The notes under the pieces: generated by a model
Database searches by the model: none
What the model was told of the DNA's origin: nothing
The model's input: only the letters and a program-made list of their open reading frames with translations
Translations under genes and position numbers: made by a program
Shown here: positions 27,277 through 48,972 of the stretch, piece after piece
Layout: the number at the start of each line of letters is the position of its first letter
Numbering within the stretch: position 1 is the stretch's first letter
NCBI RefSeq assembly: GCF_050920415.1
Contig: NZ_CP169309.1
Source: Escherichia coli
GTDB taxonomy: Bacteria > Pseudomonadota > Gammaproteobacteria > Enterobacterales > Enterobacteriaceae
Length of the DNA: 64,000 bases
Reading direction: 5' to 3' (one strand)

Positions 27277-29098
27277 GGGCAAATCCACTAACGGCTATGC
27301 GTACGTTAACCTTATCAGCACCCAGCCTGGGGTCTATCAGGTGACAGCATCGCTGGACAATAACAGTAGTCGTAAAGTTGACGTGAGTGTGGCAAAGGGC
27401 AAACTCGAGTTAACATCATCGAAGCCAGAAACCACGGTCCATAACAGTGAAGGTATTACACTGACCGCAACGGCAAGAAATATTCAGGATGAATTGATGC
27501 CGGGGCAAATTATCACCTTTAGCGTAACACCTGATGGTGCAACGCTAAGCAATACAGGGGAAATCCTGACTGATCAGTCAGGTCAGGCCAAAGTGACGCT
27601 GACCAGTGACAAAGTCAATGTATATACCGTTACGGCCACAATGGGCAAAGACGTTCCCGTTCAGAGCCAGGTGACGGTTGCGGTTAAGGCTGATGCTACA
27701 ACGGCACATGTTGTGAGTGTAGTGGCTTCTCCTGACACCATAATCGCCGACGGGGTTGATAGCAGCACCATCACTTCACGAGTAGAAGATGATTATGGAT
27801 TCCCGGTTGAAGGTGTCGACGTTAGTTACAGCTTAGACACCAAAGGCAGCCCGGTGATTAATAATCCAACTACGCGTACCGATCAGTCCGGGCAAGTCAC
27901 GGCGACAATAACAGGTACATTGGCAGAAGCTCTAATTGTCAATGTTCAGGTCCCTGGCACAGTCCACAAATCCGCAGCCATTACATTGATTCCTGGTACG
28001 GCAGATGAAAGTAAATCAACATTGAAATCTAGCGTTAGCTCTTTTATGGCTGACTTCCAGGAGAGCGCGACACTTACGTTAATATTGCAAGACAAGTACG
28101 GTAACCCGATAGTGACGTCTGATCATCTGGAATTTGTCCAGTCAGGTGCCTACGTGAACCTCCTGAAGTTGAGCAATATTGATTACAGCCAAAGAAATTA
28201 CGGCGAGTACACCGTCACTGTCACTGGCGGCGTAGAGGGCAGAGCGACTCTCATTCCTATGCTGAACGGTGTTCATCAAGCAAACTTAAGCATATCACTG
28301 GATCTTGTCCGCTCAATAAAAGACATGCACGGTCATGTAACAGTCAACAACCATACCTTCACAACGGCTACATTCCCCAGTGAAGGTTTTATAGGGGCGT
28401 ACTACACACTTAATGATGACAACTTTGAAGCGGGTAAAACCGTTAGTGATTATATGTTCACAAGTTCACAGAGTTGGGTGTCTGTCGATGCTTCAGGTAA
28501 AGTTTCTTTCACAAATACCGGCGACCAAACTTCAGTCGTAATAAGCGCTGTTCCCAGACAAGGAGGTACAACCTACCAGACATTAATTAAGCTGAAAGGC
28601 TGGTGGGTGAATCATGGGAATCAAACCAATATCTGGCTAACTGCCAATGCGTTCTGCAACGCGAAAAGTGATGGATATAATCTTCCTGGCGTCGCACATT
28701 TAACGTCTGGCGAAAACAAACGCACGTTGGGATCGCTATATGGTGAGTGGGGGAACGTTGGGGAGTTTTCCAGTGATTCGCAATTTACCGCGGGTGCTTA
28801 CTGGACCAATCAACAGGATGATTACAATAGTCACGTCTATGTGCAGATGCTGACGGGCAGGATTGGAAGCGACGCAGATTCCAGCGCTCAACTAACTGCC
28901 TGCCGTAAATCACTTTAATTTCTGAAGTAGTTATTAAAGGATACCCTTTTGCGAGGGTATCCTTTCAGACTCATGACAAAAGCCAAATTGCCTGATGCGC
29001 TACGCTTATCAGGCTTACACTATCTCTCTAATATATTGAATTTTTATGCTTTTGTAGGGAGCACAAGGCGTTTATGCCGCATCTGGCACGAGCAAACA

Positions 29099-29671
29099 TT
29101 AATCAGCTCTTTTCTCCGGGCACTCAAGAAACTCAACAGCAACCGTTGATGTCAGCCAGACCCCGTTTTCCGCTTGCCAGAAAGGGATGCCTCGTTTCGC
29201 CATTTCCTGTGCTTTGACGGTTAAAATAACCGGCGATCCGTGTCTTGCTCCCACTTTGCGTGCCGTTGCTTCATCAGCAGAGAGATGCACGTAATGACGC
29301 TCTCCTGGAATCAGCCCTTGTTTTTTTATCTCGTCAAGAAAGCGGCTTGCTGTACCGTGGTAGAGAAATTGTGGCGGTGTTTTTTCGGCAAAGGCAATGG
29401 CGACCTGCGAAGTCGAATGCCCCTGAACCGCGCGAATGCACCTACTATCACTGGAATAACTAAAACGCTTTTTATCGCTGGTGGCGACAACGGTATCCAG
29501 TAATGCACGGGTTAACCGCTTACCTGCTTTTTGTGCACAAAGTATGAGCTTATCAATATCCGCCCATCCTTCACGGTCAAGTACGATACCAATCGCCTCC
29601 GGTTTATGTCGGAGAACAAAACTTAAAAACTTGCTCGTATCCGCCAGCTCTTTTTCGTTGTACTTTGCCAT
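29099..29671 (-). CDS. kptA: RNA 2'-phosphotransferase KptA (Tpt1 family)
   Basis: About 184-190 aa ORF recognised as KptA ([25 protein letters not shown]...). Confidence 0.85.
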
Positions 29672-29920
29672 CGCATTTTCGTCCCTGGATTTTCCGTTTT
29701 TATTTACTCACGTCATTGTCACTGGATTTATGAATTTTCTGCAACGAAATCCTTCGCAGCATCTTGTTCAAACAGCGTAATTTTTCCGCTATGCAAAAAA
29801 CGCATAGCCAGAAACATACTTGCATTTTCCCCATACCCACATGGCTGATAAGGTTTTTCAGCTCCAGGAATTTTCCTGGCTAAAGCAACACACAAACACA
29901 AAAAAACAATGGGGATTGTT

Positions 29921-30604
29921 ATGACACAACAAGGGGATGCTGTAGCCGGGGAGCTGGCGACAGAAAAAGTTGGCATTAAAGGGTATCTGGCTTTTTTTCT
30001 TACCATAATCTTTTTTTCCGGTGTTTTTTCCGGGACAGACAGCTGGTGGCGCGTTTTTGATTTTTCCGTTCTGAACGGATCGTTTGGGCAACTGCCTGGT
30101 GCGAACGGAGCCACCACCTCATTTCGCGGCGCGGGTGGCGCGGGGGCTAAAGATGGCTTTCTCTTTGCGCTGGAGCTGGCACCATCAGTCATTCTCTCTC
30201 TGGGGATTATTTCAATTACCGATGGTCTTGGCGGATTACGCGCCGCGCAGCAGTTAATGACGCCAGTGCTAAAACCGTTGCTTGGCATTCCAGGCATCTG
30301 TTCGCTGGCGCTAATCGCTAACCTACAAAACACCGATGCTGCCGCCGGTATGACCAAAGAACTGGCACAGGAAGGAGAAATTACCGAACGCGATAAAGTG
30401 ATTTTCGCCGCATATCAAACCAGCGGTAGCGCCATTATCACCAACTACTTCTCTTCCGGCGTCGCGGTGTTTGCCTTTCTGGGGACGTCCGTAATCGTAC
30501 CTTTAGCCGTCATCCTGGTATTTAAATTTGTCGGTGCCAATATTTTGCGCGTCTGGCTTAACTTTGAAGAACGTCGCAACCCAACGCAAGGAGCGCAAGC
30601 ATGA
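29921..30604 (+). CDS. yjiH: Inner-membrane protein YjiH
   Basis: 227 aa from MTQQGDAVAG; hydrophobic; overlaps the yjiG start. Confidence 0.8.
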   Translation: MTQQGDAVAGELATEKVGIKGYLAFFLTIIFFSGVFSGTDSWWRVFDFSVLNGSFGQLPGANGATTSFRGAGGAGAKDGFLFALELAPSVILSLGIISITDGLGGLRAAQQLMTPVLKPLLGIPGICSLALIANLQNTDAAAGMTKELAQEGEITERDKVIFAAYQTSGSAIITNYFSSGVAVFAFLGTSVIVPLAVILVFKFVGANILRVWLNFEERRNPTQGAQA

Positions 30605-31062
30605 CAACTCAGGTCCGCAAAAATGTCATGGATATGTTTATCGATGGCGCGCGCCGTGGCTTTACTATCGCCACCACCAACCTGCTGCCCAACGTGGTGA
30701 TGGCATTTGTCATCATTCAGGCACTGAAAATTACTGGCCTGCTCGACTGGGTGGGGCATATCTGTGAACCCGTAATGGCGTTGTGGGGATTGCCAGGTGA
30801 AGCGGCAACCGTCCTTTTAGCCGCATTAATGAGTATGGGCGGCGCAGTCGGTGTTGCCGCCAGTCTGGCGACCGCTGGCGCATTAACTGGCCACGATGTC
30901 ACTGTTTTACTGCCTGCAATGTATTTAATGGGCAACCCGGTGCAAAATGTCGGTCGCTGCCTGGGGACAGCCGAAGTGAATGCCAAATATTATCCGCACA
31001 TCATTACGGTCTGCGTCATTAACGCATTGCTGTCGATCTGGGTTATGCAGCTTATTGTTTAA
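30601..31062 (+). CDS. yjiG: Inner-membrane protein YjiG
   Basis: 153-aa hydrophobic ORF; ATGA overlap with the yjiH stop. Confidence 0.8.
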   Translation: MTTQVRKNVMDMFIDGARRGFTIATTNLLPNVVMAFVIIQALKITGLLDWVGHICEPVMALWGLPGEAATVLLAALMSMGGAVGVAASLATAGALTGHDVTVLLPAMYLMGNPVQNVGRCLGTAEVNAKYYPHIITVCVINALLSIWVMQLIV

Positions 31063-31074
31063 CAAGGAGTTATC

Positions 31075-32247
31075 ATGATTGATTATTCCGCAGCCGGTTT
31101 TACCCTGCTGCAGGGAGCGCATTTGTATGCGCCGGAAGATCGGGGAATTTGCGATGTCCTCGTCGCTAACGGCAAAATTATCGCCGTTGCCAGCAATATC
31201 CCTTCTGACATCGTACCTGACTGCATGGTCGTCGATCTCCGCGGGCAGATCCTCTGCCCAGGTTTTATTGATCAACACGTCCATTTGATTGGCGGTGGCG
31301 GAGAAGCTGGTCCCACTACGCGTACGCCGGAAGTGGCGTTAAGTCGTCTGACAGAAGCGGGCGTCACGTCAGTGGTTGGACTGCTGGGCACCGACTCTGT
31401 CTCTCGCCACCCGGAATCCCTGCTCGCCAAGACCCGTGCGCTCAATGAGGAAGGCATCAGCGCCTGGATGCTGACCGGCGCTTATCATGTACCTTCCCGC
31501 ACCATTACAGGTTCCGTGGAAAAAGACGTGGCAATTATCGATCGCGTGATTGGCGTGAAATGCGCTATCTCTGATCACCGCTCTGCCGCACCGGACGTTT
31601 ATCACCTGGCCAATATGGCGGCGGAATCCCGCGTTGGCGGTTTGCTCGGCGGTAAGCCTGGCGTCACTGTGTTCCACATGGGCGACAGCAAAAAGGCATT
31701 GCAGCCTATCTATGACCTGCTGGAAAACTGCGATGTTCCCATCAATAAGTTGCTGCCGACCCACGTTAACCGCAACGTACCGTTGTTTGAGCAGGCGCTG
31801 GAGTTTGCGCGCAAAGGCGGTACCATCGACATCACCAGCAGCATTGACGAACCAGTCGCCCCTGCCGAAGGTATTGCCCGCGCCGTTCAGGCCGGTATTC
31901 CGCTGGCACGCGTCACCCTCAGCTCTGACGGCAACGGTAGCCAGCCGTTCTTCGATGACGAAGGGAATTTAACCCATATCGGTGTTGCAGGTTTTGAAAC
32001 GTTGCTGGAAACCGTGCAGGTGCTGGTCAAAGACTACGATTTCAGTATCAGCGATGCCCTGCGCCCGCTCACCAGTAGCGTAGCCGGTTTCCTTAACCTG
32101 AGCGGGAAAGGCGAAATTCTGCCAGGCAATGACGCAGACTTGCTGGTCATGACGCCAGAACTGCGCATTGAACAGGTATACGCTCGCGGCAAACTGATGG
32201 TTAAAGACGGCAAAGCCTGCGTGAAAGGAACGTTTGAAACGGCATAA
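31075..32247 (+). CDS. iadA: Isoaspartyl dipeptidase IadA
   Basis: 390-aa amidohydrolase-fold protein with metal-binding HVHLIGGGG motif. Confidence 0.9.
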   Translation: MIDYSAAGFTLLQGAHLYAPEDRGICDVLVANGKIIAVASNIPSDIVPDCMVVDLRGQILCPGFIDQHVHLIGGGGEAGPTTRTPEVALSRLTEAGVTSVVGLLGTDSVSRHPESLLAKTRALNEEGISAWMLTGAYHVPSRTITGSVEKDVAIIDRVIGVKCAISDHRSAAPDVYHLANMAAESRVGGLLGGKPGVTVFHMGDSKKALQPIYDLLENCDVPINKLLPTHVNRNVPLFEQALEFARKGGTIDITSSIDEPVAPAEGIARAVQAGIPLARVTLSSDGNGSQPFFDDEGNLTHIGVAGFETLLETVQVLVKDYDFSISDALRPLTSSVAGFLNLSGKGEILPGNDADLLVMTPELRIEQVYARGKLMVKDGKACVKGTFETA

Positions 32248-32311
32248 ACGGTTGTCAGCCGCCCGAATGGACGTAGAATGCCCGCAAGGGCGGCTGACAG
32301 AGTAAAACGTA

Positions 32312-33223
32312 ATGGATGACTGTGGTGCAGTTTTGCATAATATTGAAACAAAATGGCTTTATGATTTTCTGACCCTGGAAAAATGCCGCAACTTTTCCCA
32401 GGCGGCAGTCAGTCGCAACGTCTCACAACCCGCATTTAGCCGTCGCATCCGCGCGCTGGAACAGGCGATTGGCGTTGAATTGTTTAACCGCCAGGTGACA
32501 CCTCTGCAACTCTCGGAACAAGGAAAAATCTTCCATTCGCAGATCCGCCATCTGCTGCAACAGTTAGAGAGCAACCTTGCAGAACTGCGTGGCGGCAGCG
32601 ATTACGCGCAACGTAAAATCAAGGTAGCCGCTGCACACTCTCTTTCTCTCGGTCTTTTACCGTCCATTATCAGCCAGATGCCGCCGCTCTTTACCTGGGC
32701 GATTGAAGCCATTGATGTTGATGAAGCGGTCGATAAACTGCGTGAAGGGCAAAGCGACTGTATTTTTTCCTTTCATGACGAAGATTTGCTGGAAGCGCCG
32801 TTTGACCACATTCGCTTATTTGAATCTCAATTGTTCCCCGTCTGCGCCAGTGACGAACACGGAGAAGCACTTTTTAACCTCGCACAGCCACACTTTCCGT
32901 TACTGAATTACAGCCGCAACTCCTACATGGGGCGATTGATTAACCGTACCCTGACGCGCCACAGTGAGTTAAGTTTCAGCACCTTTTTTGTCTCGTCGAT
33001 GAGCGAGCTTTTAAAGCAGGTTGCCCTCGACGGCTGTGGGATTGCCTGGCTGCCGGAGTACGCCATCCAACAAGAAATTCGCAGCGGGAAGCTTATCGTT
33101 CTGAATCGGGACGAACTGGTGATCCCGATTCAGGCCTATGCATACCGGATGAATACCCGTATGAATCCCGTGGCCGAACGCTTCTGGCGCGAACTGCGCG
33201 AGCTGGAGATTGTGCTTAGCTGA
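32312..33223 (+). CDS. hypT: LysR-family hypochlorite-responsive regulator HypT (YjiE)
   Basis: 303-aa ORF with LysR-type N-terminal HTH ([23 protein letters not shown]). Confidence 0.85.
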
Positions 33224-33608
33224 CATTCTCCAGCGTCGCACTACACCAACCGCCACTATCCCAGACCAGATCATACGTTAGCGGTTCATCGTCGTGGTGC
33301 AGCATTATCTCAAGGCTGATCGCCAGCGTGTGGCTGTACGCTTCTTTCAAATTGACCTGCAACGCCGCAATCCGAGGCTCATGAAATAACAGTGCAGAAC
33401 GTAGTTGACGGCAATACCAGCTCTGGAGATGTTTGTCGCTCTGGTTATGCACTTGCCACTCAGGCATACCTGAAACAAGTAATGAAGGTAATGCCGAATG
33501 AGGAGAATTAAAAAGAGTGAGGAGATCGCTGCATACCGATTTACGCAGTGATAACGTTTTATTGCCTGAAATTTCAGGTGAAACAGCCTGAAGTGATTGG
33601 CGCATCAT
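33216..33608 (-). CDS. iraD: Anti-adaptor protein IraD (RssB inhibitor)
   Basis: About 130 aa; convergent with hypT and overlapping its 3' end by 8 bp. Confidence 0.75.
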
Positions 33609-34281
33609 TTTGCGCACTCCTGACGTTTAGCAACATATGTGGCTTGCCCTGAATACCGGGCACCACTGTATTGATGCTCATTTTCCATAGCCATTCCCTT
33701 TTGTTCATTACATCCATGTCAGTCTGAGACAGGCCTGAATCCTGTCAGCAAAGTATAAAACCTTACTTGCCTATGAATATCTACTGACTTTTCAGGAAAA
33801 AAGTCATGATTTGATAAAAATCATCAAACTCAAAAAAAAACCGCTAGTATATTCTGAATATTCCGAATAGTTACGTAGATGAAAATACTTGTCACCGCCG
33901 CTACTTAATTTCGGTGGGAGATTATTTATTTCCGCATAATCAGCCATGCATTATTTGAAACAATTAGTTTGTAAATAATATAAATTGATAACATATCAAA
34001 TACATCAAAAACACCATTCACAGGCATTATTAATATAGACATCAATATAACAACATCAAATTCCAATTAGTAATAAGATATGCTTTTAAATTGCATGCAA
34101 ATAATTTTAAATGAGCGTTTTTTGATACTTTAGAGTGTTTCCCACCCTTTAATATCACTGTGTAGAGTTGATATCACTACAACAGAAACATGCATGTCAT
34201 TTGTTTACTTCTCTTTTTACTACAGAAAAATTTATCTATTTTTCTAAAACATCAGTGAAATACTCATAAAAGGTTATTAAT

Positions 34282-35103
34282 ATGTCTATGCCAATAAGCA
34301 ATGCCGCTAACAACAAAATTTTTACAGATAATCATTTCGCTCATCATCCAAATGCCGATAAAGAATTAGCAGACAGTATGCCCTCGCATCTTAACTCGGA
34401 AAACATCTATGTCAGACCTCTTGTTCGTGGAAATAACCATAACTATGATGGGGGAAGTGTTGTCGAAATTAGACAGCTTGAAATTGGTAAACAAGGGTAT
34501 TGGCCATTCAATTACGTAACAGCCGCATGTAAAGAATCCGATGGTATTTCAATCACAGGAAACATACGCTGTGGTACCTGGAAGGCCAGCTCAGTATTAG
34601 ACGGAATATACGGTGGAGTATGTAAAAAGGCGCATGTTTCCGCAGCGTTAGAAGCTGGTCTACGGTTTAACCTAACTATGGATTCTAAAATTCCAAACAC
34701 GATACATGAAATAACCCTAGGCCCTGGTTGCAATGTTCCAGGCTATGCGGGAACCACGATAGGATACCTGGCAACACTCCCCCTTGAAAAGGTTGAAAAT
34801 TGGCAAGATACAACATTGCCAAGAATTGATATCTATATTGATCAGATAATGACTGTGTCAGGGGTAGCAAATTCTTCTGGATTCGCCCTTGCTGCATTAC
34901 TTAATGCTAATATTGGAATGGGAAATGACCCAATAATTGGTATAGAAGCCTATCCTGGTACCGCTGAGATCCACGCTAAGATTGGATATAAAGTTATCCC
35001 CGGGGATGAAAATGCACATGTCAAACGTATGACTCTGCAACCGTCATCTCTCCCAGAACTGTTTGAATTAAAAAATGGTGAATGGAATTATATTGGTAAA
35101 TAA
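34282..35103 (+). CDS. yjiC: Uncharacterised protein YjiC
   Basis: 273-aa ORF preceded by a very AT-rich region of about 600 bp; recognised as the yjiC position next to uxuR. Confidence 0.7.
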   Translation: MSMPISNAANNKIFTDNHFAHHPNADKELADSMPSHLNSENIYVRPLVRGNNHNYDGGSVVEIRQLEIGKQGYWPFNYVTAACKESDGISITGNIRCGTWKASSVLDGIYGGVCKKAHVSAALEAGLRFNLTMDSKIPNTIHEITLGPGCNVPGYAGTTIGYLATLPLEKVENWQDTTLPRIDIYIDQIMTVSGVANSSGFALAALLNANIGMGNDPIIGIEAYPGTAEIHAKIGYKVIPGDENAHVKRMTLQPSSLPELFELKNGEWNYIGK

Positions 35104-35243
35104 CCACTGGGAAGAATGAGTACTAACATTCAGGTTATACAGATATTTAAACAATACCCTGCAATTTACAAAGTAATACTCATTGCAACTTCTTAATTTA
35201 AGAAAGCGCAAGGAACGTTTACCCTTGCGCTTATCATAATAAG

Positions 35244-36017
35244 TCAGGCGTCGACTTTATCCAGCGGCCATGAATCAAACAGATAGCCATCAAAATAAAT
35301 ATCGTCAACGTTCGAGAATTCAAGCAGACGTTGCTTCACGTTTTCCAGATGCTGCCACATTGCCAGCTTCGCCGCTCGGGCGTCTTTTTTGATTAACGCG
35401 GCGAGGATCTGTTTGTGATCGCCCAACCACTCTTTGCGATACAGGCTGTCATCCAGATGGCTGTGCAATTGGATCCACATTGGATTGTTTTCCCGCCACT
35501 GCCAGGACTGACGGAATAGCTCCACCAGCATGCTGTTATGCGTTGCTTCGGCAATGGCGAGATGGAACTGCATATCACCGCTTTCGCTGCTACCCGGCGC
35601 GCTGGAAGCCAGTTCACGCTCTTCCAGTTGCAATGCCTGACGCATTTTGACGATATCTTCGCGGGTAGCCTGCAGGGCGGCAAATTCCGCGATGTTACTT
35701 TCCAGTAACTGACGCGCCTGTAACAGCTCAAAAGGACCCGCATCATTGCAAACGTTGGCATCCGGACCGTCTGTGTTCTGGCTGTCTGAGCTATCAAGAA
35801 CATAAATACCGGCACCCCGGCGCACTTCCACCAGCCCTTTGATCTCCAGCATGATCAGCGCTTCACGTACCACCGTCCGCGTGACATCAAGCATTTCTGC
35901 AATTTCACGCTCCGGCGGCAGCCGTTCGCCAGGATTGTACGGCGTCTTTATGATCAGATCGCGGATCATCGCCCCGACTTCCTGGTAAGGTCTTTGCGCA
36001 GAGGTGGCAGATTTCAT
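35244..36017 (-). CDS. uxuR: GntR/FadR-family repressor UxuR
   Basis: 257-aa ORF with N-terminal GntR HTH and FadR-like C-terminal domain; adjacent to uxuB/uxuA. Confidence 0.9.
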   Translation of the reverse strand: MKSATSAQRPYQEVGAMIRDLIIKTPYNPGERLPPEREIAEMLDVTRTVVREALIMLEIKGLVEVRRGAGIYVLDSSDSQNTDGPDANVCNDAGPFELLQARQLLESNIAEFAALQATREDIVKMRQALQLEERELASSAPGSSESGDMQFHLAIAEATHNSMLVELFRQSWQWRENNPMWIQLHSHLDDSLYRKEWLGDHKQILAALIKKDARAAKLAMWQHLENVKQRLLEFSNVDDIYFDGYLFDSWPLDKVDA

Positions 36018-36054
36018 GGTGTTGTGTCCGTTAGGTGCAGTTAATCAAATTTTT

Positions 36055-36088
36055 GCCGGATGCGTCGTGCACGCCTTATCCGGCCTAC
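36055..36088. repeat. REP element
   Basis: GCCGGATGCGTCGTGCACGCCTTATCCGGCCTAC between uxuR and uxuB. Confidence 0.7.
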
Positions 36089-36230
36089 AACGGGCGATTT
36101 TACGGCCCCCGTCAATCTCAAACTATACCATTAGCACTGGAAGTTGGCACGTACAGGTGGGCAAAAAACGAAAACTGGTCAACCAAATATTATTTTGATT
36201 GACCAGTAAGTCTGTTGGGTAATCAGTTAG

Positions 36231-37691
36231 TTACAGCGCAGCCACACACTCGCGCGCACCGCGTTCGCACAGCTGCTGATATGCCGCCGTCACCGCGCCA
36301 ACAAAGTCGGCATTCTGCGGCAGATCATCGGCAAAAATACCGCTCAGGCCCAGCAGCGCTTTCACGCGGTCTGCGCCCTGATACTGCGCGTTAATCTTCT
36401 GGAACTCGGCCAGCATCGGGTCAACCACGTCAATGGCATTACCCTGCTCATCCACACCCTGGGTGTAGCGCATCCAGCCAGCCACGCCGAGCGCCAGGTG
36501 ACGCCAGCTACCGCCGTTTTGTAGGTGCAGACGCACCGGGTCCAGCAAACGCTGCGGTAACTTCTGGCTGCCGTCCATCGCAATCTGCCAGGTACGGTGA
36601 CGCAGAGACGGGTTGCTGAAACGCTCGATCAGCAGCGTCGCATAGGCGTTCAGGTCCGTACCTTCCGGCATCGACAGCGTTGGCGCTTGTTCCTGCATCA
36701 TCAGGGCAAAGGCCGCTTTGCGATAATCCGGATTAGTCATGGTGTCGGCAATGGTTTCATAGCCGCCGAGGTAACCGAGGTACGCCAGGAAAGAGTGGCT
36801 GCCGTTCAGCATACGCAATTTCATCATTTCGAACGGCACAACGTCTGCAACGAACTGTGCGCCCACTTTATCCCAGTCCGGGCGACCATTAACGAAGTTA
36901 TCTTCAATCACCCACTGACGGAACGGTTCGCAGGCAATGGCACACGGGTCATAAACACCCAGCTGGTCAGCAATTTCCTGTAAGGTTTCTGGCGTCGCAG
37001 CCGGAACGATGCGGTCAACCATGGTGCACGGGAAGGTGACATTCTCTTCAATCCATGCAGCCAGCTGCGGATCACGCGCCTGAGCCAGCCCCAGAACGGC
37101 AACTTTTGCCACGTGGCCGTTTTCACGCACGTTGTCGCAGGACATGACAGTAAACGCTTTCAGCCCTTTTTCACGACGCAGACGCAAAGCTTCAACGATG
37201 TAACCAATCGCGGACTTCGGCGCAGTCGGGTTTTCCAGATCGTGCTTGATCAGCGGGTTATTGAGATCCAGCTGACCGCTCGCCGCATCGGCGCAATAAC
37301 CTTTCTCTGTGACTGTCAGGGAGACAATCGCCGTCTGCGGACGCGCCATCGCGTTGAGAATACCTTCACAACCGTCGATTTCCGGGTGCAGCGCTTCTTT
37401 CATCGAGCCAATAATTTTCAGCTCGGTGCTTTCTGCGCCTTTTTCCGCTACGGTGTACAGCAGTTGCTGTTTTTTCAGGTTTTCGATCAGCACACGGTCG
37501 TTGCCTGGCATCAGGTTAACTTCGCAGATCCCCCAGTCGCTATCCGTGCTTTCCAGCAGGTGATGGGTGTACAGCGCCTGGTGCGCGCGGTGAAACGCCC
37601 CGCAACCGAGATGCACAATGCGTGATTCCAGACGAGAATGATCCCATGACGGGCGGGCAACCGGCAGATTGCTGTCAACAATAGTAGTCAT
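36231..37691 (-). CDS. uxuB: D-mannonate oxidoreductase UxuB
   Basis: 486-aa ORF recognised as UxuB (mannitol-dehydrogenase family). Confidence 0.9.
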   Translation of the reverse strand: MTTIVDSNLPVARPSWDHSRLESRIVHLGCGAFHRAHQALYTHHLLESTDSDWGICEVNLMPGNDRVLIENLKKQQLLYTVAEKGAESTELKIIGSMKEALHPEIDGCEGILNAMARPQTAIVSLTVTEKGYCADAASGQLDLNNPLIKHDLENPTAPKSAIGYIVEALRLRREKGLKAFTVMSCDNVRENGHVAKVAVLGLAQARDPQLAAWIEENVTFPCTMVDRIVPAATPETLQEIADQLGVYDPCAIACEPFRQWVIEDNFVNGRPDWDKVGAQFVADVVPFEMMKLRMLNGSHSFLAYLGYLGGYETIADTMTNPDYRKAAFALMMQEQAPTLSMPEGTDLNAYATLLIERFSNPSLRHRTWQIAMDGSQKLPQRLLDPVRLHLQNGGSWRHLALGVAGWMRYTQGVDEQGNAIDVVDPMLAEFQKINAQYQGADRVKALLGLSGIFADDLPQNADFVGAVTAAYQQLCERGARECVAAL

Positions 37692-37771
37692 CGTAAACTC
37701 CAGAATCCGTCTTCAGAGAGTGACGGCAAGGAAGAAGGAACCGGCACGGCGCGCAGCCATGCCGGTGGATA

Positions 37772-38956
37772 TTAACGGCTAAAGAAAGCGCGCTGGATCG
37801 CCATTTCGACGCCGCGAACTTCAGCCAGACCTTTCAGACGACCAATCGCGGAGTAACCTGGGTTGGTTTTCTTCTTCAGGTCGTCCAGCATCTGATGACC
37901 GTGGTCCGGACGCATCGGGATCAGGTCTTCTTTGCCTTCCGCTTTACGACGGTGTTCTTCTTCAACAATCGCTTTCACCACTTCGTACATATCAACGTCA
38001 CCGTTCAGGTGCGCCGCTTCGTGGAAGGTTTTCGGGTTATCTTCACGCATGGTGGAACGCAGATGGGTGAAGTAAATACGCGGACCGAACTGCTTGATCA
38101 TATCAACCAGATCGTTGTCAGCACGCACGCCGTAGGAACCGGTGCACATGGTGAAACCGTTCGCCATGCTGTTTACGGTATCAACCATCCACTGCATATC
38201 TTCAATGGTGGAAACGATACGCGGCAGGCCGAGGATTGGGCGCGGCGGATCGTCCGGGTGAACAGCCATACGCACGCCAACTTCTTCCGCAACTGGAATG
38301 ATCGCCTTCAGGAAGACCGCAAAGTTTTCGCGCAGTTTGGCTTTGTCGATATCTTTGTACAGCTCCAGGTGCTTACGGAACTGGTCAAGGGTGTAGCCTT
38401 CTTCCGCGCCCGGCAGACCGGCAATGATGTTACGGGTCAGACGCGCTTTGTCTTCGTCGCTCATAGTGGCGAAGCGTTCAGCGGCCTGAGCAATTTCTTC
38501 TTCGGTGTAATCCGCTTCCGCGCCTGGACGCTTGAGGATGTGCATTTCAAACGCAGCAAATTCGATCTGGTCGAAGCGCAGAGCTTTGGAGCCATCTGGC
38601 AGCACGTATTCGAGGTCAGTACGGGTCCAGTCGAGCACCGGCATGAAGTTGTAGCACACGGTGCGAATGCCGCACTGCGCCAGATTGCGCAGAGTTTGCT
38701 GATAGTTAGCGATCCACTGCTCGTAGTTGCCAGTATGAGTTTTGATATCTTCGTGAATTGGCACGCTTTCTACGACAGACCACACCAGGCCTGCGTCTTC
38801 AACGATCGCCTTGCGTTTGAGGATCTCTTCTACGGACCATACTTCCCCGTTCGGGATATGGTGCAAAGCGGTAACCACGCCAGTCGCGCCCGCCTGACGG
38901 ACATCAGCTAAAGTGACCGGATCATTAGGGCCGTACCAGCGCCAGGTCTGTTCCAT
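37772..38956 (-). CDS. uxuA: D-mannonate dehydratase UxuA
   Basis: 394 aa from [14 protein letters not shown]; the 12-codon upstream extension in the ORF track is probably not used. Confidence 0.9.
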
Positions 38957-39295
38957 GATTTTTCCTCTTTCACATAGTGGGTTCCACAGCAAAAAAACGC
39001 GGAATCCCGGAGTTGTTTAGGTATCCGGATGAACAACCAGACCGCAGCCGTGGCATTGCATCGGATGAGATGGCGTATAAGTTCTACCTTTTGGTAAGAC
39101 ATGTCAACCCGAATTCAAAAATTGGTTAACCACATCACAAGATTTTCACGCGCACGCTCGTTGCTGCAAATTGCAGCAAAGGGTAATTGATAGTTATTAA
39201 TCAGAGGGTGTGACATTCATCGCAACAATGGTTGACCAATTTACATAACATGTCGCCCAAAATAACAACGGTTCAACCAGGTAAGGTAAAACGTT

Positions 39296-40639
39296 ATGCA
39301 TGTGCTTAACATTCTTTGGGTAGTATTCGGTATCGGTCTGATGCTGGTACTGAATTTGAAGTTCAAAATCAATTCAATGGTGGCTTTGCTAGTGGCGGCG
39401 CTATCCGTCGGGATGTTGGCGGGCATGGATTTGATGTCGCTGCTGCACACCATGAAAGCGGGCTTCGGCAACACGCTGGGGGAACTGGCAATCATTGTTG
39501 TGTTCGGTGCGGTCATTGGTAAATTGATGGTCGACTCCGGCGCGGCTCATCAGATAGCGCATACGCTGCTGGCGCGTCTCGGCCTGCGCTATGTCCAGAT
39601 ATCGGTGATTATCATCGGCCTGATTTTTGGTCTGGCGATGTTCTATGAAGTGGCCTTTATCATGTTAGCGCCGCTGGTTATCGTCATTGCCGCCGAAGCT
39701 AAAATTCCGTTCCTGAAACTGGCTATTCCGGCAGTAGCGGCTGCTACCACCGCACATTCACTTTTCCCTCCGCAGCCGGGTCCGGTGGCGCTGGTGAATG
39801 CTTATGGTGCAGATATGGGGATGGTTTATATCTATGGTGTACTGGTGACAATCCCAAGCGTAATCTGCGCAGGCCTGATTCTGCCGAAGTTCCTCGGTAA
39901 TCTTGAGCGCCCAACGCCATCATTCCTCAAAGCGGATCAACCGGTGGATATGAATAATCTCCCCTCTTTCGGCGTTTCGATTCTGGTACCGCTGATCCCG
40001 GCGATCATTATGATCTCTACCACTATCGCCAATATCTGGCTGGTCAAAGACACCCCTGCGTGGGAAGTCGTTAACTTTATCGGTTCATCGCCGATTGCAA
40101 TGTTTATTGCGATGGTGGTTGCATTCGTACTCTTTGGCACCGCGCGTGGTCATGACATGCAGTGGGTGATGAACGCCTTTGAAAGCGCGGTAAAAAGCAT
40201 TGCGATGGTGATTCTGATCATCGGTGCGGGCGGCGTGCTGAAGCAGACCATCATCGACACCGGCATTGGTGACACCATCGGCATGTTGATGTCCCACGGC
40301 AATATCTCGCCCTACATCATGGCGTGGCTGATCACTGTGCTAATTCGTCTGGCGACGGGTCAAGGTGTGGTTTCGGCGATGACTGCCGCCGGGATTATCA
40401 GTGCTGCAATCCTTGATCCAGCAACCGGTCAACTGGTTGGCGTGAATCCGGCGCTGCTGGTACTGGCGACGGCTGCGGGTTCCAACACCCTCACCCACAT
40501 TAACGATGCCTCATTCTGGTTGTTCAAAGGTTACTTTGACCTGTCAGTAAAAGACACGTTGAAAACATGGGGTCTGCTGGAGCTGGTCAACTCCGTGGTT
40601 GGGCTGATTATTGTGTTGATTATTAGCATGGTAGCGTAA
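39296..40639 (+). CDS. gntP: GntP-family gluconate/fructuronate transporter
   Basis: 447-aa polytopic permease, divergent from uxuA. Confidence 0.9.
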
Positions 40640-47419: not shown

Positions 47420-47537
47420 GCTGCTTTCCTTTAAAAAAACTGTTTCTAAATCGACATGGGCAGTCGTTCTGTACACTTTGTTTTGAAACGAATTGGACTG
47501 CCAACACTGCACAGTTCTTCCCCAAAAGATGAAACAT

Positions 47538-47851
47538 TTGGGGCCATTTTGACTCATAGAGGAAAGCATTACGCACGAACTTTCTTAGTTTATTATTTGG
47601 ATTTATATTCTATTAATACATTCTTTTATAGATTTTCATATTGAACACGGTGGTTTTTGGAGAGATGAATGAGGAAGTTGCTTCGAGACACAGAAACGTT
47701 AACTTTACCTATAGCGGAGGTGATGTGAAATTAATTTATAAGAGAAACAATTTACATATCAAACAGTTAGTTGCTTTATATCGTTTTTTTATATTTTTAT
47801 GCTTGAGAACAAATACAAAACTTTTTTATGATATGGACAGTTTGGCCCCAA
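47538..47851. promoter_or_regulatory. fimS: fimS invertible phase-variation switch (314 bp, 9-bp inverted repeats), apparently in OFF orientation
   Basis: TTGGGGCCA at 47538-47546 and its inverse TGGCCCCAA at 47843-47851 are exactly 314 bp apart. Inside, a sigma70-like promoter (TTGAGA, 18 bp, TATGATA at 47827-47833) reads on the + strand toward fimE, away from fimA. Confidence 0.75.
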
Positions 47852-47898
47852 TTGTCTTATATTTCTTTATCTTTTCATATTATTATCAATAAGTTACA

Positions 47899-48495: not shown

Positions 48496-48972
48496 AATAG
48501 TAGTACTCCTGACTGAGATATATTTGAATGAATACCTATAGGAAACCTCGATCGGTTAAAATTAGCCCAATAGATAAAAAGATAACCACACAGGAAGTTA
48601 TGTGGCTATCAGTCAATTACATTAAATATCATACAAAAATAAAATATCACTGATGTGACAACATCTATTTTCATTGATTTGATTCAATATAACAATAGAT
48701 TGCAGCGGATTAACTTCCAGTTGCTTAAAAAATAAAGAAAAAAGTGCAGAAACAGGAGAACTTGAGTGATGTGTAAATTTATGAATGATTTTGTTTATTT
48801 ATTTTGAAGAACATAAACCATTGTATTTTGTATGGATATGGTTAACTTAATGTTTATTATGATAATTAAGGATCACACTTACAATAACATCAATTAATAA
48901 ATGGTTAATCATTTTTGATATATCGTAAGAATAATGTATTTTTTAACACCATCCCTGGTATCTCATCTATCT

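Follow-up and report, generated by a model that had tools for sequence, protein, structure and literature searches.

The AT-rich spacer between iraD and yjiC of Escherichia coli as a probable shared control region of two divergent units

In the 64,000-nucleotide stretch of the Escherichia coli contig NZ_CP169309.1 (assembly GCF_050920415.1) analysed here, hereafter the window, the divergently transcribed genes iraD and yjiC are separated by a long and very AT-rich spacer, which raises the question whether this DNA is a regulatory region in its own right, imported DNA kept silent, or a non-coding spacer whose composition has no special meaning. The evidence presented below points to the first of these, with the tract serving two divergent units, yjiC and ytiC-ytiD-idlP-iraD, as their common control region, a reading to which we give a probability of about 0.88. 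Judged from its sequence, the tract is the orthologue of the iraD control region of E. coli K-12, with every sequence-level defining feature examined found in place. The region controls IraD, one of the three anti-adapters that decide RpoS degradation, and therefore matters for stress and DNA-damage tolerance.

Composition and regulatory elements of the spacer

The annotation used is the RefSeq annotation of E. coli MFDS1022581 (NZ_CP169399.1), which is 100% identical over query 33100..35300 and maps one-to-one onto the window, and according to which the local gene order is iadA, hypT, iraD, AT-rich spacer, yjiC and uxuR. The spacer extends from the start codon of iraD to the start codon of yjiC (33609..34281, 673 bp) and has a guanine-cytosine (GC) content of 31.9% as compared to 47.4% for the window, a value equally low being found in 0.86% of all 673-bp windows. 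Its core (33780..34281, 27.9% GC) is essentially the lowest-GC 502-bp stretch of the 64 kb, with the window-wide 502-bp minimum (0.277) starting at 33782 and a content equally low as that of the core found in 0.05% of 502-bp windows. Runs of at least four A or T residues occur at 25.3 per kb in the spacer, which is twice the density of the window (12.5 per kb). Of the 25 annotated spacers that measure 60 bp or more in the first 50 kb, none is longer than this one and three have a lower GC content, and yjiC itself, with a GC content of 0.409, ranks fourth lowest among 40 coding sequences. An earlier sequence-only reading of this DNA had described very low GC over about 670 bp between iraD and yjiC, long A/T runs from roughly 33780 to 34280 and an AT-rich yjiC, and had proposed GC profiling as a check; all three observations hold, and the composition is quantitatively distinct.

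The K-12 iraD region was described by Park et al. (2017) using positions counted from the iraD ATG (PMC5574718), and position -n of that numbering was converted to window position 33608+n. The K-12 orthologue, at about 4556268..4556939 of U00096.3, is about 98% identical over the spacer, occupies the same locus with the same gene order, carries its elements at the same offsets from the iraD ATG and has an idlP stop codon that overlaps the iraD start in the same way, whereas the differences consist of point differences only (27 variable columns across four genomes). In K-12, iraD is transcribed from the promoters P1 (sigma-70) and P2 (sigma-70 or sigma-S), which are ppGpp-dependent and are induced at the entry into stationary phase and by DNA damage (PMC5574718). 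The corresponding distal promoter P1, of the sigma-70 type, is placed in the window at 34025..34059 on the minus strand, with the -35 hexamer TTGATG (34059..34054), a 16-bp spacing and the -10 hexamer TATATT (34037..34032), and would direct initiation at approximately 34025/34026. This promoter was recovered independently by a consensus scan (TTGATG-16-TATATT), 7 nt upstream of the deduced start. The proximal promoter P2, ppGpp-dependent and recognized by sigma-70 or sigma-S, is placed at 33745..33779 on the minus strand, with a -35-like TATTCA (33779..33774) and a -10 hexamer TATACT (33757..33752), and would start at approximately 33745/33746. The P2 start was deduced from the -138 leader fusion and from its reported placement 3 nt upstream of the GGA of the first CsrA site, and the P1 start by adding 280 nt to that of P2 and by using the -547..-413 fusion (PMC5574718). 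P1-like and P2-like hexamers indeed stand 280 nt apart in the window, with intact ytiC and ytiD open reading frames (ORFs) between them.

The transcribed P1 leader accounts for 418 of the 673 bp of the spacer (62%) and contains three small ORFs, and the remaining 255 bp (25.5% GC) comprise P1 itself, the DNA upstream of P1 and the presumed yjiC promoter region, the latter two at 34060..34281. In the 418-nt leader of the K-12 P1 transcript, ytiC, ytiD and idlP are all translated (PMC5574718). Thus, the description of the tract as a promoter island, given by the sequence-only reading, stands insofar as it is promoter DNA and fails insofar as it was taken to be solely that. The leader peptide gene idlP (ORF27, 33605..33688, minus strand) was located from the annotation and by reading the sequence, its mechanism being that reported for K-12 (PMC5574718), and its TGA and the iraD ATG overlap in the tetranucleotide ATGA within GCAAAATGATGCGC. 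Further upstream lies ytiD (ORF47, 33804..33947, minus strand, from the annotation), which is translated in K-12 (PMC5574718), followed by ytiC (33926..34027, minus strand, in the 33-aa form starting at ATG 34027), which matches the Pfam family PF23685 (YtiC-like, 3.4e-14) over 22 residues corresponding to positions 12-33 of the 33-position model. The shorter form of ytiC, called ORF23 by Park et al., starts at ATG 33994 (PMC5574718). Putative CsrA sites BS1-BS4 (33684..33742, minus strand), mapped from the published offsets (PMC5574718) and identical to those of K-12, are recognized from the sequence by GGA motifs at 33742..33740, 33715..33713, 33697..33695 (the idlP Shine-Dalgarno sequence) and 33686..33684 (overlapping the idlP start codon). 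By our mapping the GGA of BS1 is at -134, and the positions given for K-12 are -112..-103, -90..-84 and -78/-77 with the BS1 GGA 3 nt from the P2 start (PMC5574718).

Silencing by H-NS was the main function that the sequence-only reading had attached to the tract, and comparison with chromatin immunoprecipitation (ChIP) data from K-12 had been proposed for it. A published listing of 78 'promoter islands' includes the orthologous region of K-12 (entry 4554354_526, yjiC(-)/iraD(+), 526 bp), which is scored there as H-NS-bound (code 'K' in Table 1, ChIP data of Kahramanoglou and of Oshima) and also as associated with predicted foreign genes (PMC3661553). Hence, the proposal of an H-NS target is upheld by the listing of a 98%-identical region as bound as well as by the distinct composition. 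Inhibition of IraD and IraM expression by H-NS is stated in a passage of PMC6064147 that cites Battesti et al. (2012). Sequence tests made on the window are compatible with H-NS binding and not decisive, the published ChIP being the decisive evidence. One site with a single mismatch to the H-NS high-affinity motif tCGATAAATT was found (TAGATAAATT, 34229..34238, minus strand; 10 such sites in the 64 kb), and a peak of predicted curvature at 34193..34318, near the yjiC start, is the sixth most curved position in the window according to a crude wedge model in our own implementation. A relaxed scan identified 20 weak -35/-10 pairs on both strands between 33700 and 34290.

Regulation reported for the K-12 locus gives these elements their meaning. 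At four GGA sites around the ribosome-binding site of idlP, CsrA binds and prevents this ORF from being translated; since translation of iraD is coupled to that of idlP and its own Shine-Dalgarno sequence is sequestered, less IraD is made and the mRNA is degraded more rapidly in the presence of CsrA (PMC5574718). Upon treatment with azidothymidine (AZT), ytiC is induced 260-fold, which makes it the most strongly induced gene of E. coli, and ytiD (33-fold), idlP (18-fold), iraD (14-fold) and the divergent yjiC (11-fold) are induced along with it, in a manner that is LexA-independent and partly SspA-dependent for all five genes (PMC11228462). With iraD thus responsive to ppGpp, DNA damage, sigma-S and CsrA (PMC5574718, PMC11228462), the earlier suggestion that such a tract marks tightly stress-regulated genes is well supported. 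Applied to the window, RNA polymerase would start iraD transcripts at P1 (approximately 34026) and P2 (approximately 33745), and CsrA would block idlP and thereby lower the coupled translation of iraD. H-NS bound to the AT-rich DNA would inhibit IraD expression, such that RpoS stays unstable in unstressed cells. Both arms could be held off together because one H-NS-coated tract would span P1 and the yjiC promoter, and for the same reason replication stress may release both units together.

Several points weigh against this reading. The mechanism is carried over from K-12 on the strength of 98% sequence identity, and the start coordinates of P1 and P2 are reconstructions from the fusion end-points of PMC5574718. 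A common H-NS filament repressing both arms is what we infer. As regards the curvature that the sequence-only reading had suggested profiling, the same crude model predicts a local peak near yjiC and average values for the remainder of the tract. When scanned strictly, the spacer contained four promoter-like hexamer pairs, which is not an enrichment over the 6.6 expected from dinucleotide-preserving shuffles, and a high AT content may largely explain the 'island of promoters' of Panyukov and Ozoline; both promoter scans were our own consensus scans. Direct control of iraD by DnaA is disputed, as it is claimed by one line of work and a DnaA ChIP sequencing study found no binding upstream of iraD, and a strict search for DnaA boxes (TTWTNCACA) gave no match in the spacer.

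As compared to other systems, the tract resembles the promoter islands in being AT-rich, in carrying many weak promoter-like pairs on both strands and in being listed as H-NS-bound, but promoter islands are described as transcriptionally almost silent (PMC3661553), whereas the iraD tract has two bona fide inducible promoters and contains the strongly AZT-induced ytiC. Two long spacers among those of lower GC content in the first 50 kb belong to the fim switch, fimE/fimB (48496..48972, 477 bp, 27.5% GC) and fimA/fimE (47420..47898, 479 bp, 31.7% GC), and these are the other long, very AT-rich spacers of the window. They share with the iraD spacer a considerable length, a GC content of 27-32% and the listing among promoter islands and H-NS-bound regions (PMC3661553). 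They differ in function, however, the fim spacers controlling a phase switch with invertible DNA and the iraD spacer acting via its two promoters, its translated leader and the CsrA-dependent coupling of translation. For K-12, all these features of the iraD tract have already been published, as have its AT-richness and its binding of H-NS. Modest leads from the present analysis are the constrained spacer, the two-haplotype interval, the rare mosaic yjiC allele, a hairpin at the hypT/iraD overlap and a possibly leaderless 33-aa YtiC.

The last of these leads arises from the coincidence of the ATG of the 33-aa YtiC (34027), whose length equals that of the PF23685 model, with the reconstructed P1 start at approximately 34025/34026. 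Possibly, this form is translated from a leaderless mRNA, or else the start site or the ORF boundary differs. The ytiC call of the Prokaryotic Genome Annotation Pipeline is a 38-aa ORF from ATG 34042, which would be upstream of P1, and homologues of ytiC and ytiD are labelled 'hypothetical protein'; a literature search on ytiC/ytiD found nothing further.

Two additional sites lie within the leader. A box for HusR (YnfL), CCGCTAGTATATTCTG, was found at 33841..33856 using the published motif (PMC12844172), and it is overlapped by the palindrome TATTCTGAATATTCCGAATA at 33850..33869, located approximately 105-125 bp upstream of the P2 start. This palindrome is conserved in the genus, being kept in both haplotypes of E. 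coli, in Escherichia whittamii and in Escherichia sp. E1V33 and partly in Escherichia albertii, and it is probably a transcription-factor site. The RNA of the P2 leader is not predicted to fold more stably than shuffled sequences (z -0.89).

Conservation and origin of the hypT–uxuR interval

Of 5426 complete E. coli genomes, 4898 carry the spacer at 95-99% identity, and when compared per 100 bp with a K-12-like genome it is 95-100% identical as against 92-98% for the flanking genes. Among four E. coli genomes, diversity amounts to 0.019 in the spacer and 0.007 in the leader from P2 to idlP, as compared to 0.038 in iraD and 0.023 in uxuR. Because its diversity is lower than that of iraD and uxuR in these four genomes, the AT-rich spacer is constrained at least as strongly as coding sequence; that the spacer varies less than iraD itself goes beyond the literature consulted, as do the two haplotypes and the rare yjiC allele described below. 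The published elements (the ATGA overlap, the GGA sites, ORF23, ORF47 and ORF27) are identical or nearly so to those of K-12, and conservation of P2, the CsrA sites and idlP extends to E. albertii, E. whittamii, Escherichia sp. E1V33 and CFT073-type E. coli.

Conservation is accompanied by a marked dimorphism, since approximately 523 of the 5426 complete E. coli genomes (about 10%) are without the spacer and yjiC. In CFT073-type E. coli, E. whittamii and Escherichia sp. E1V33, the segment concerned (33873..35243), which covers the 5' part of ytiD, ytiC, P1 and yjiC, is missing or has no counterpart recognizable by similarity. The iraD allele of CFT073 and FDAARGOS_144 is divergent, encodes 127 aa and is located 413 bp (35.6% GC) from uxuR, and homology to the window stops at 33872, inside ytiD, with the result that P1, ytiC and yjiC are missing. 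The other breakpoint is the hypT stop codon, and a gene remnant of a phosphotransferase system (PTS) or a full dhaL-ptsP insertion is present between hypT and iraD, both of which are intact. The short form also occurs in E. whittamii and Escherichia sp. E1V33, and across this haplotype the spacer measures 413-420 bp and iraD encodes 127 aa. E. albertii combines a yjiC (62% amino acid identity) and a 654-bp spacer of 31% GC with a CFT-type iraD. No integrase, insertion sequence (IS) element or transposase is annotated between hypT and uxuR, no tRNA gene is present in 28000..40000, and no convincing direct repeats flank the hypT–uxuR segment. As short and long forms occur across Escherichia species without any of these signatures, the interval, 33213..35244, is an old two-haplotype replacement region and not a recent mobile island.

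These data bear directly on how the low GC content arose. The AT-rich tract together with yjiC might constitute a horizontally acquired islet, on which H-NS exerts xenogeneic silencing without an evolved regulatory role, and we consider this possible, though doubtful. It would account for the low GC content of yjiC (0.409) and its restriction to Escherichia and Shigella with no full-length distant relative among 1.84 billion representative proteins, for the patchy distribution of 33873..35243 in E. coli, E. whittamii and Escherichia sp. E1V33, for the flagging of the K-12 region as foreign by several composition-based predictors (PMC3661553) and for the species-level divergence of the N-terminal two-thirds of yjiC (dS, the synonymous divergence, of 0.72), which suggests an imported segment. 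The atypical composition and patchy distribution expected of an island are found, but its mobility signatures are not, and the presence of yjiC and a similarly AT-rich 654-bp spacer in E. albertii shows that the arrangement is old, such that its absence elsewhere may be loss. Moreover, a spacer more conserved than its neighbouring genes argues for an evolved function and not for silent cargo, and the proximal third with P2, leader and idlP occurs in each of the five Escherichia lineages compared, whether or not yjiC is present. The suggestion of horizontal acquisition in the sequence-only reading accordingly survives in a weak sense, for a patchy and Escherichia-restricted yjiC, and is contradicted in the sense of a recent mobile island.

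That the low GC content represents nothing beyond the ordinary composition of a long non-coding spacer is highly improbable. Annotated spacers of the window do vary widely in GC content (mean 45.7%, standard deviation 10%), promoter-like sites are not enriched over dinucleotide shuffles and no Rfam family is found in the tract, the matches obtained when 33000..35400 was compared with Rfam at E up to 1 being chance-level ones to eukaryotic small nucleolar and long non-coding RNAs with no known RNA family among them. Nevertheless, 31.9% over 673 bp falls in the lowest 0.9% of windows with a core at about the window minimum, comparably long low-GC spacers occur only at the fim switch, which is regulated and listed as H-NS-bound, and neither the strong conservation nor the published H-NS occupancy nor the multiple mapped regulatory elements would be expected of DNA without special meaning. 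The reading as a shared control region of the two divergent units is therefore preferred over both.

The divergent gene yjiC and its variable product

The gene at the other end of the tract, yjiC (34282..35103, plus strand), encodes a 273-aa protein of the DUF2686 family (Pfam, 2.7e-113) and is present in the window as a rare mosaic allele. Of 5426 complete E. coli genomes, only 7 carry it at 99% identity or more, while the alleles of 4879 are 60-80% identical to it. Relative to K-12, the first approximately 600 bp are 58-82% identical and the last approximately 200 bp 90-94%, and the drop in identity starts exactly at the yjiC start codon, adjoining the 98%-conserved spacer. The N-terminal part of approximately 200 codons has a dS of 0.72 against K-12 with a ratio of nonsynonymous to synonymous divergence (dN/dS) of approximately 0.38, and the last approximately 70 codons have a dS of 0.28. 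The N-terminal part thus differs from K-12 to about the same extent as the E. albertii orthologue (dS 0.61-0.79), with dN/dS at approximately 0.35-0.45. In population terms, yjiC is a hypervariable orphan gene.

YjiC was found only in Escherichia and Shigella, and no distant relative of full length turned up in a profile search of 1.84 billion representative proteins, the matches being mostly short fragments (29-166 aa). A GNAT-like C-terminus was considered for YjiC and is unsupported, with no Pfam family besides DUF2686 matching at E up to 10 and no sequence match in the PDB below E = 0.09. An AlphaFold2 model built from a 15-sequence alignment had a mean predicted local distance difference test score of 32 and was not usable.

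P1, ytiC, the 5' part of ytiD and yjiC may constitute one replaceable module of approximately 1.4 kb that is present or absent by lineage, with YjiC kept as several deeply divergent, recombining allele classes under diversifying or frequency-dependent selection, which we regard as an unlikely, speculative proposal. If true, YjiC would act, for example, in antagonism, phage interaction or self-recognition, and its expression would be tied to the iraD circuit via the H-NS-bound spacer.

Downstream of yjiC, a GC-rich hairpin (AAGCGCAAGG-N8-CCTTGCGCTT, 35204..35233) lies between this gene and the convergent uxuR (35244..36017, minus strand). It is likely to be a terminator shared by yjiC and uxuR, with the T-run required by our terminator scan lacking.

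The hypT/iraD overlap and other observations

On its other side, iraD (33216..33608, minus strand) encodes the 130-aa RpoS-stabilising anti-adapter of the gp25/TssE-like fold family (NCBIfam NF010726, 5.6e-86; Pfam GPW_gp25) and converges with hypT (32312..33223, plus strand), the gene of a LysR-type hypochlorite regulator. The 8-bp overlap of hypT and iraD noticed in the sequence-only reading is found in the RefSeq annotation at 33216..33223, and a K-12-like genome has an identical one. The overlap forms the centre of an inverted repeat (33196..33240, stem of approximately 12 bp) whose loop contains both stop codons and which folds on either strand, at -24 to -25 kcal/mol, without a U-tract after it. 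The sequence of this repeat is kept in K-12-type loci, and it could serve as a 3'-end structure shared by both convergent mRNAs. Approximately 430 bp lie between hypT and iraD in Escherichia sp. E1V33, and E. whittamii has a 21-bp overlap of the corresponding ORFs.

Whether this overlap couples the two genes, by transcriptional interference or antisense pairing of 3' ends, was also weighed, and such coupling seems to us quite improbable. The overlap is present in K-12-type genomes, E. whittamii has an independent one of 21 bp, the inverted repeat centred on the junction is stable, and a scan of 33100..35300 predicted no intrinsic terminator, which means that convergent transcripts could run into each other. 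Yet CFT073-type genomes separate hypT and iraD by the PTS remnant or dhaL-ptsP with both genes intact, the hairpin shows no covariation and only modest z-scores (-1.6 and -2.2), and no paper linking hypT and iraD expression was found. Short 3' overlaps of convergent genes are, moreover, common in compact bacterial genomes, which counts against coupling.

A scan of genome contigs for IraD using narrow peptide patterns identified five loci, all of them from Escherichia except one 605-bp contig. The IraD encoded by this contig (NZ_ABFU01000118.1, titled Bacillus coahuilensis) shares 94% identity with that of the window, and the contig is probably an E. coli contamination in that assembly. Elsewhere in the window, a further low-GC block (17400..19600, approximately 30-34% GC) comprises yjiL, a DUF3343 gene and the beginning of a gene with pentapeptide repeats, and yjiL (32.6%) is the lowest-GC coding sequence of the first 50 kb.

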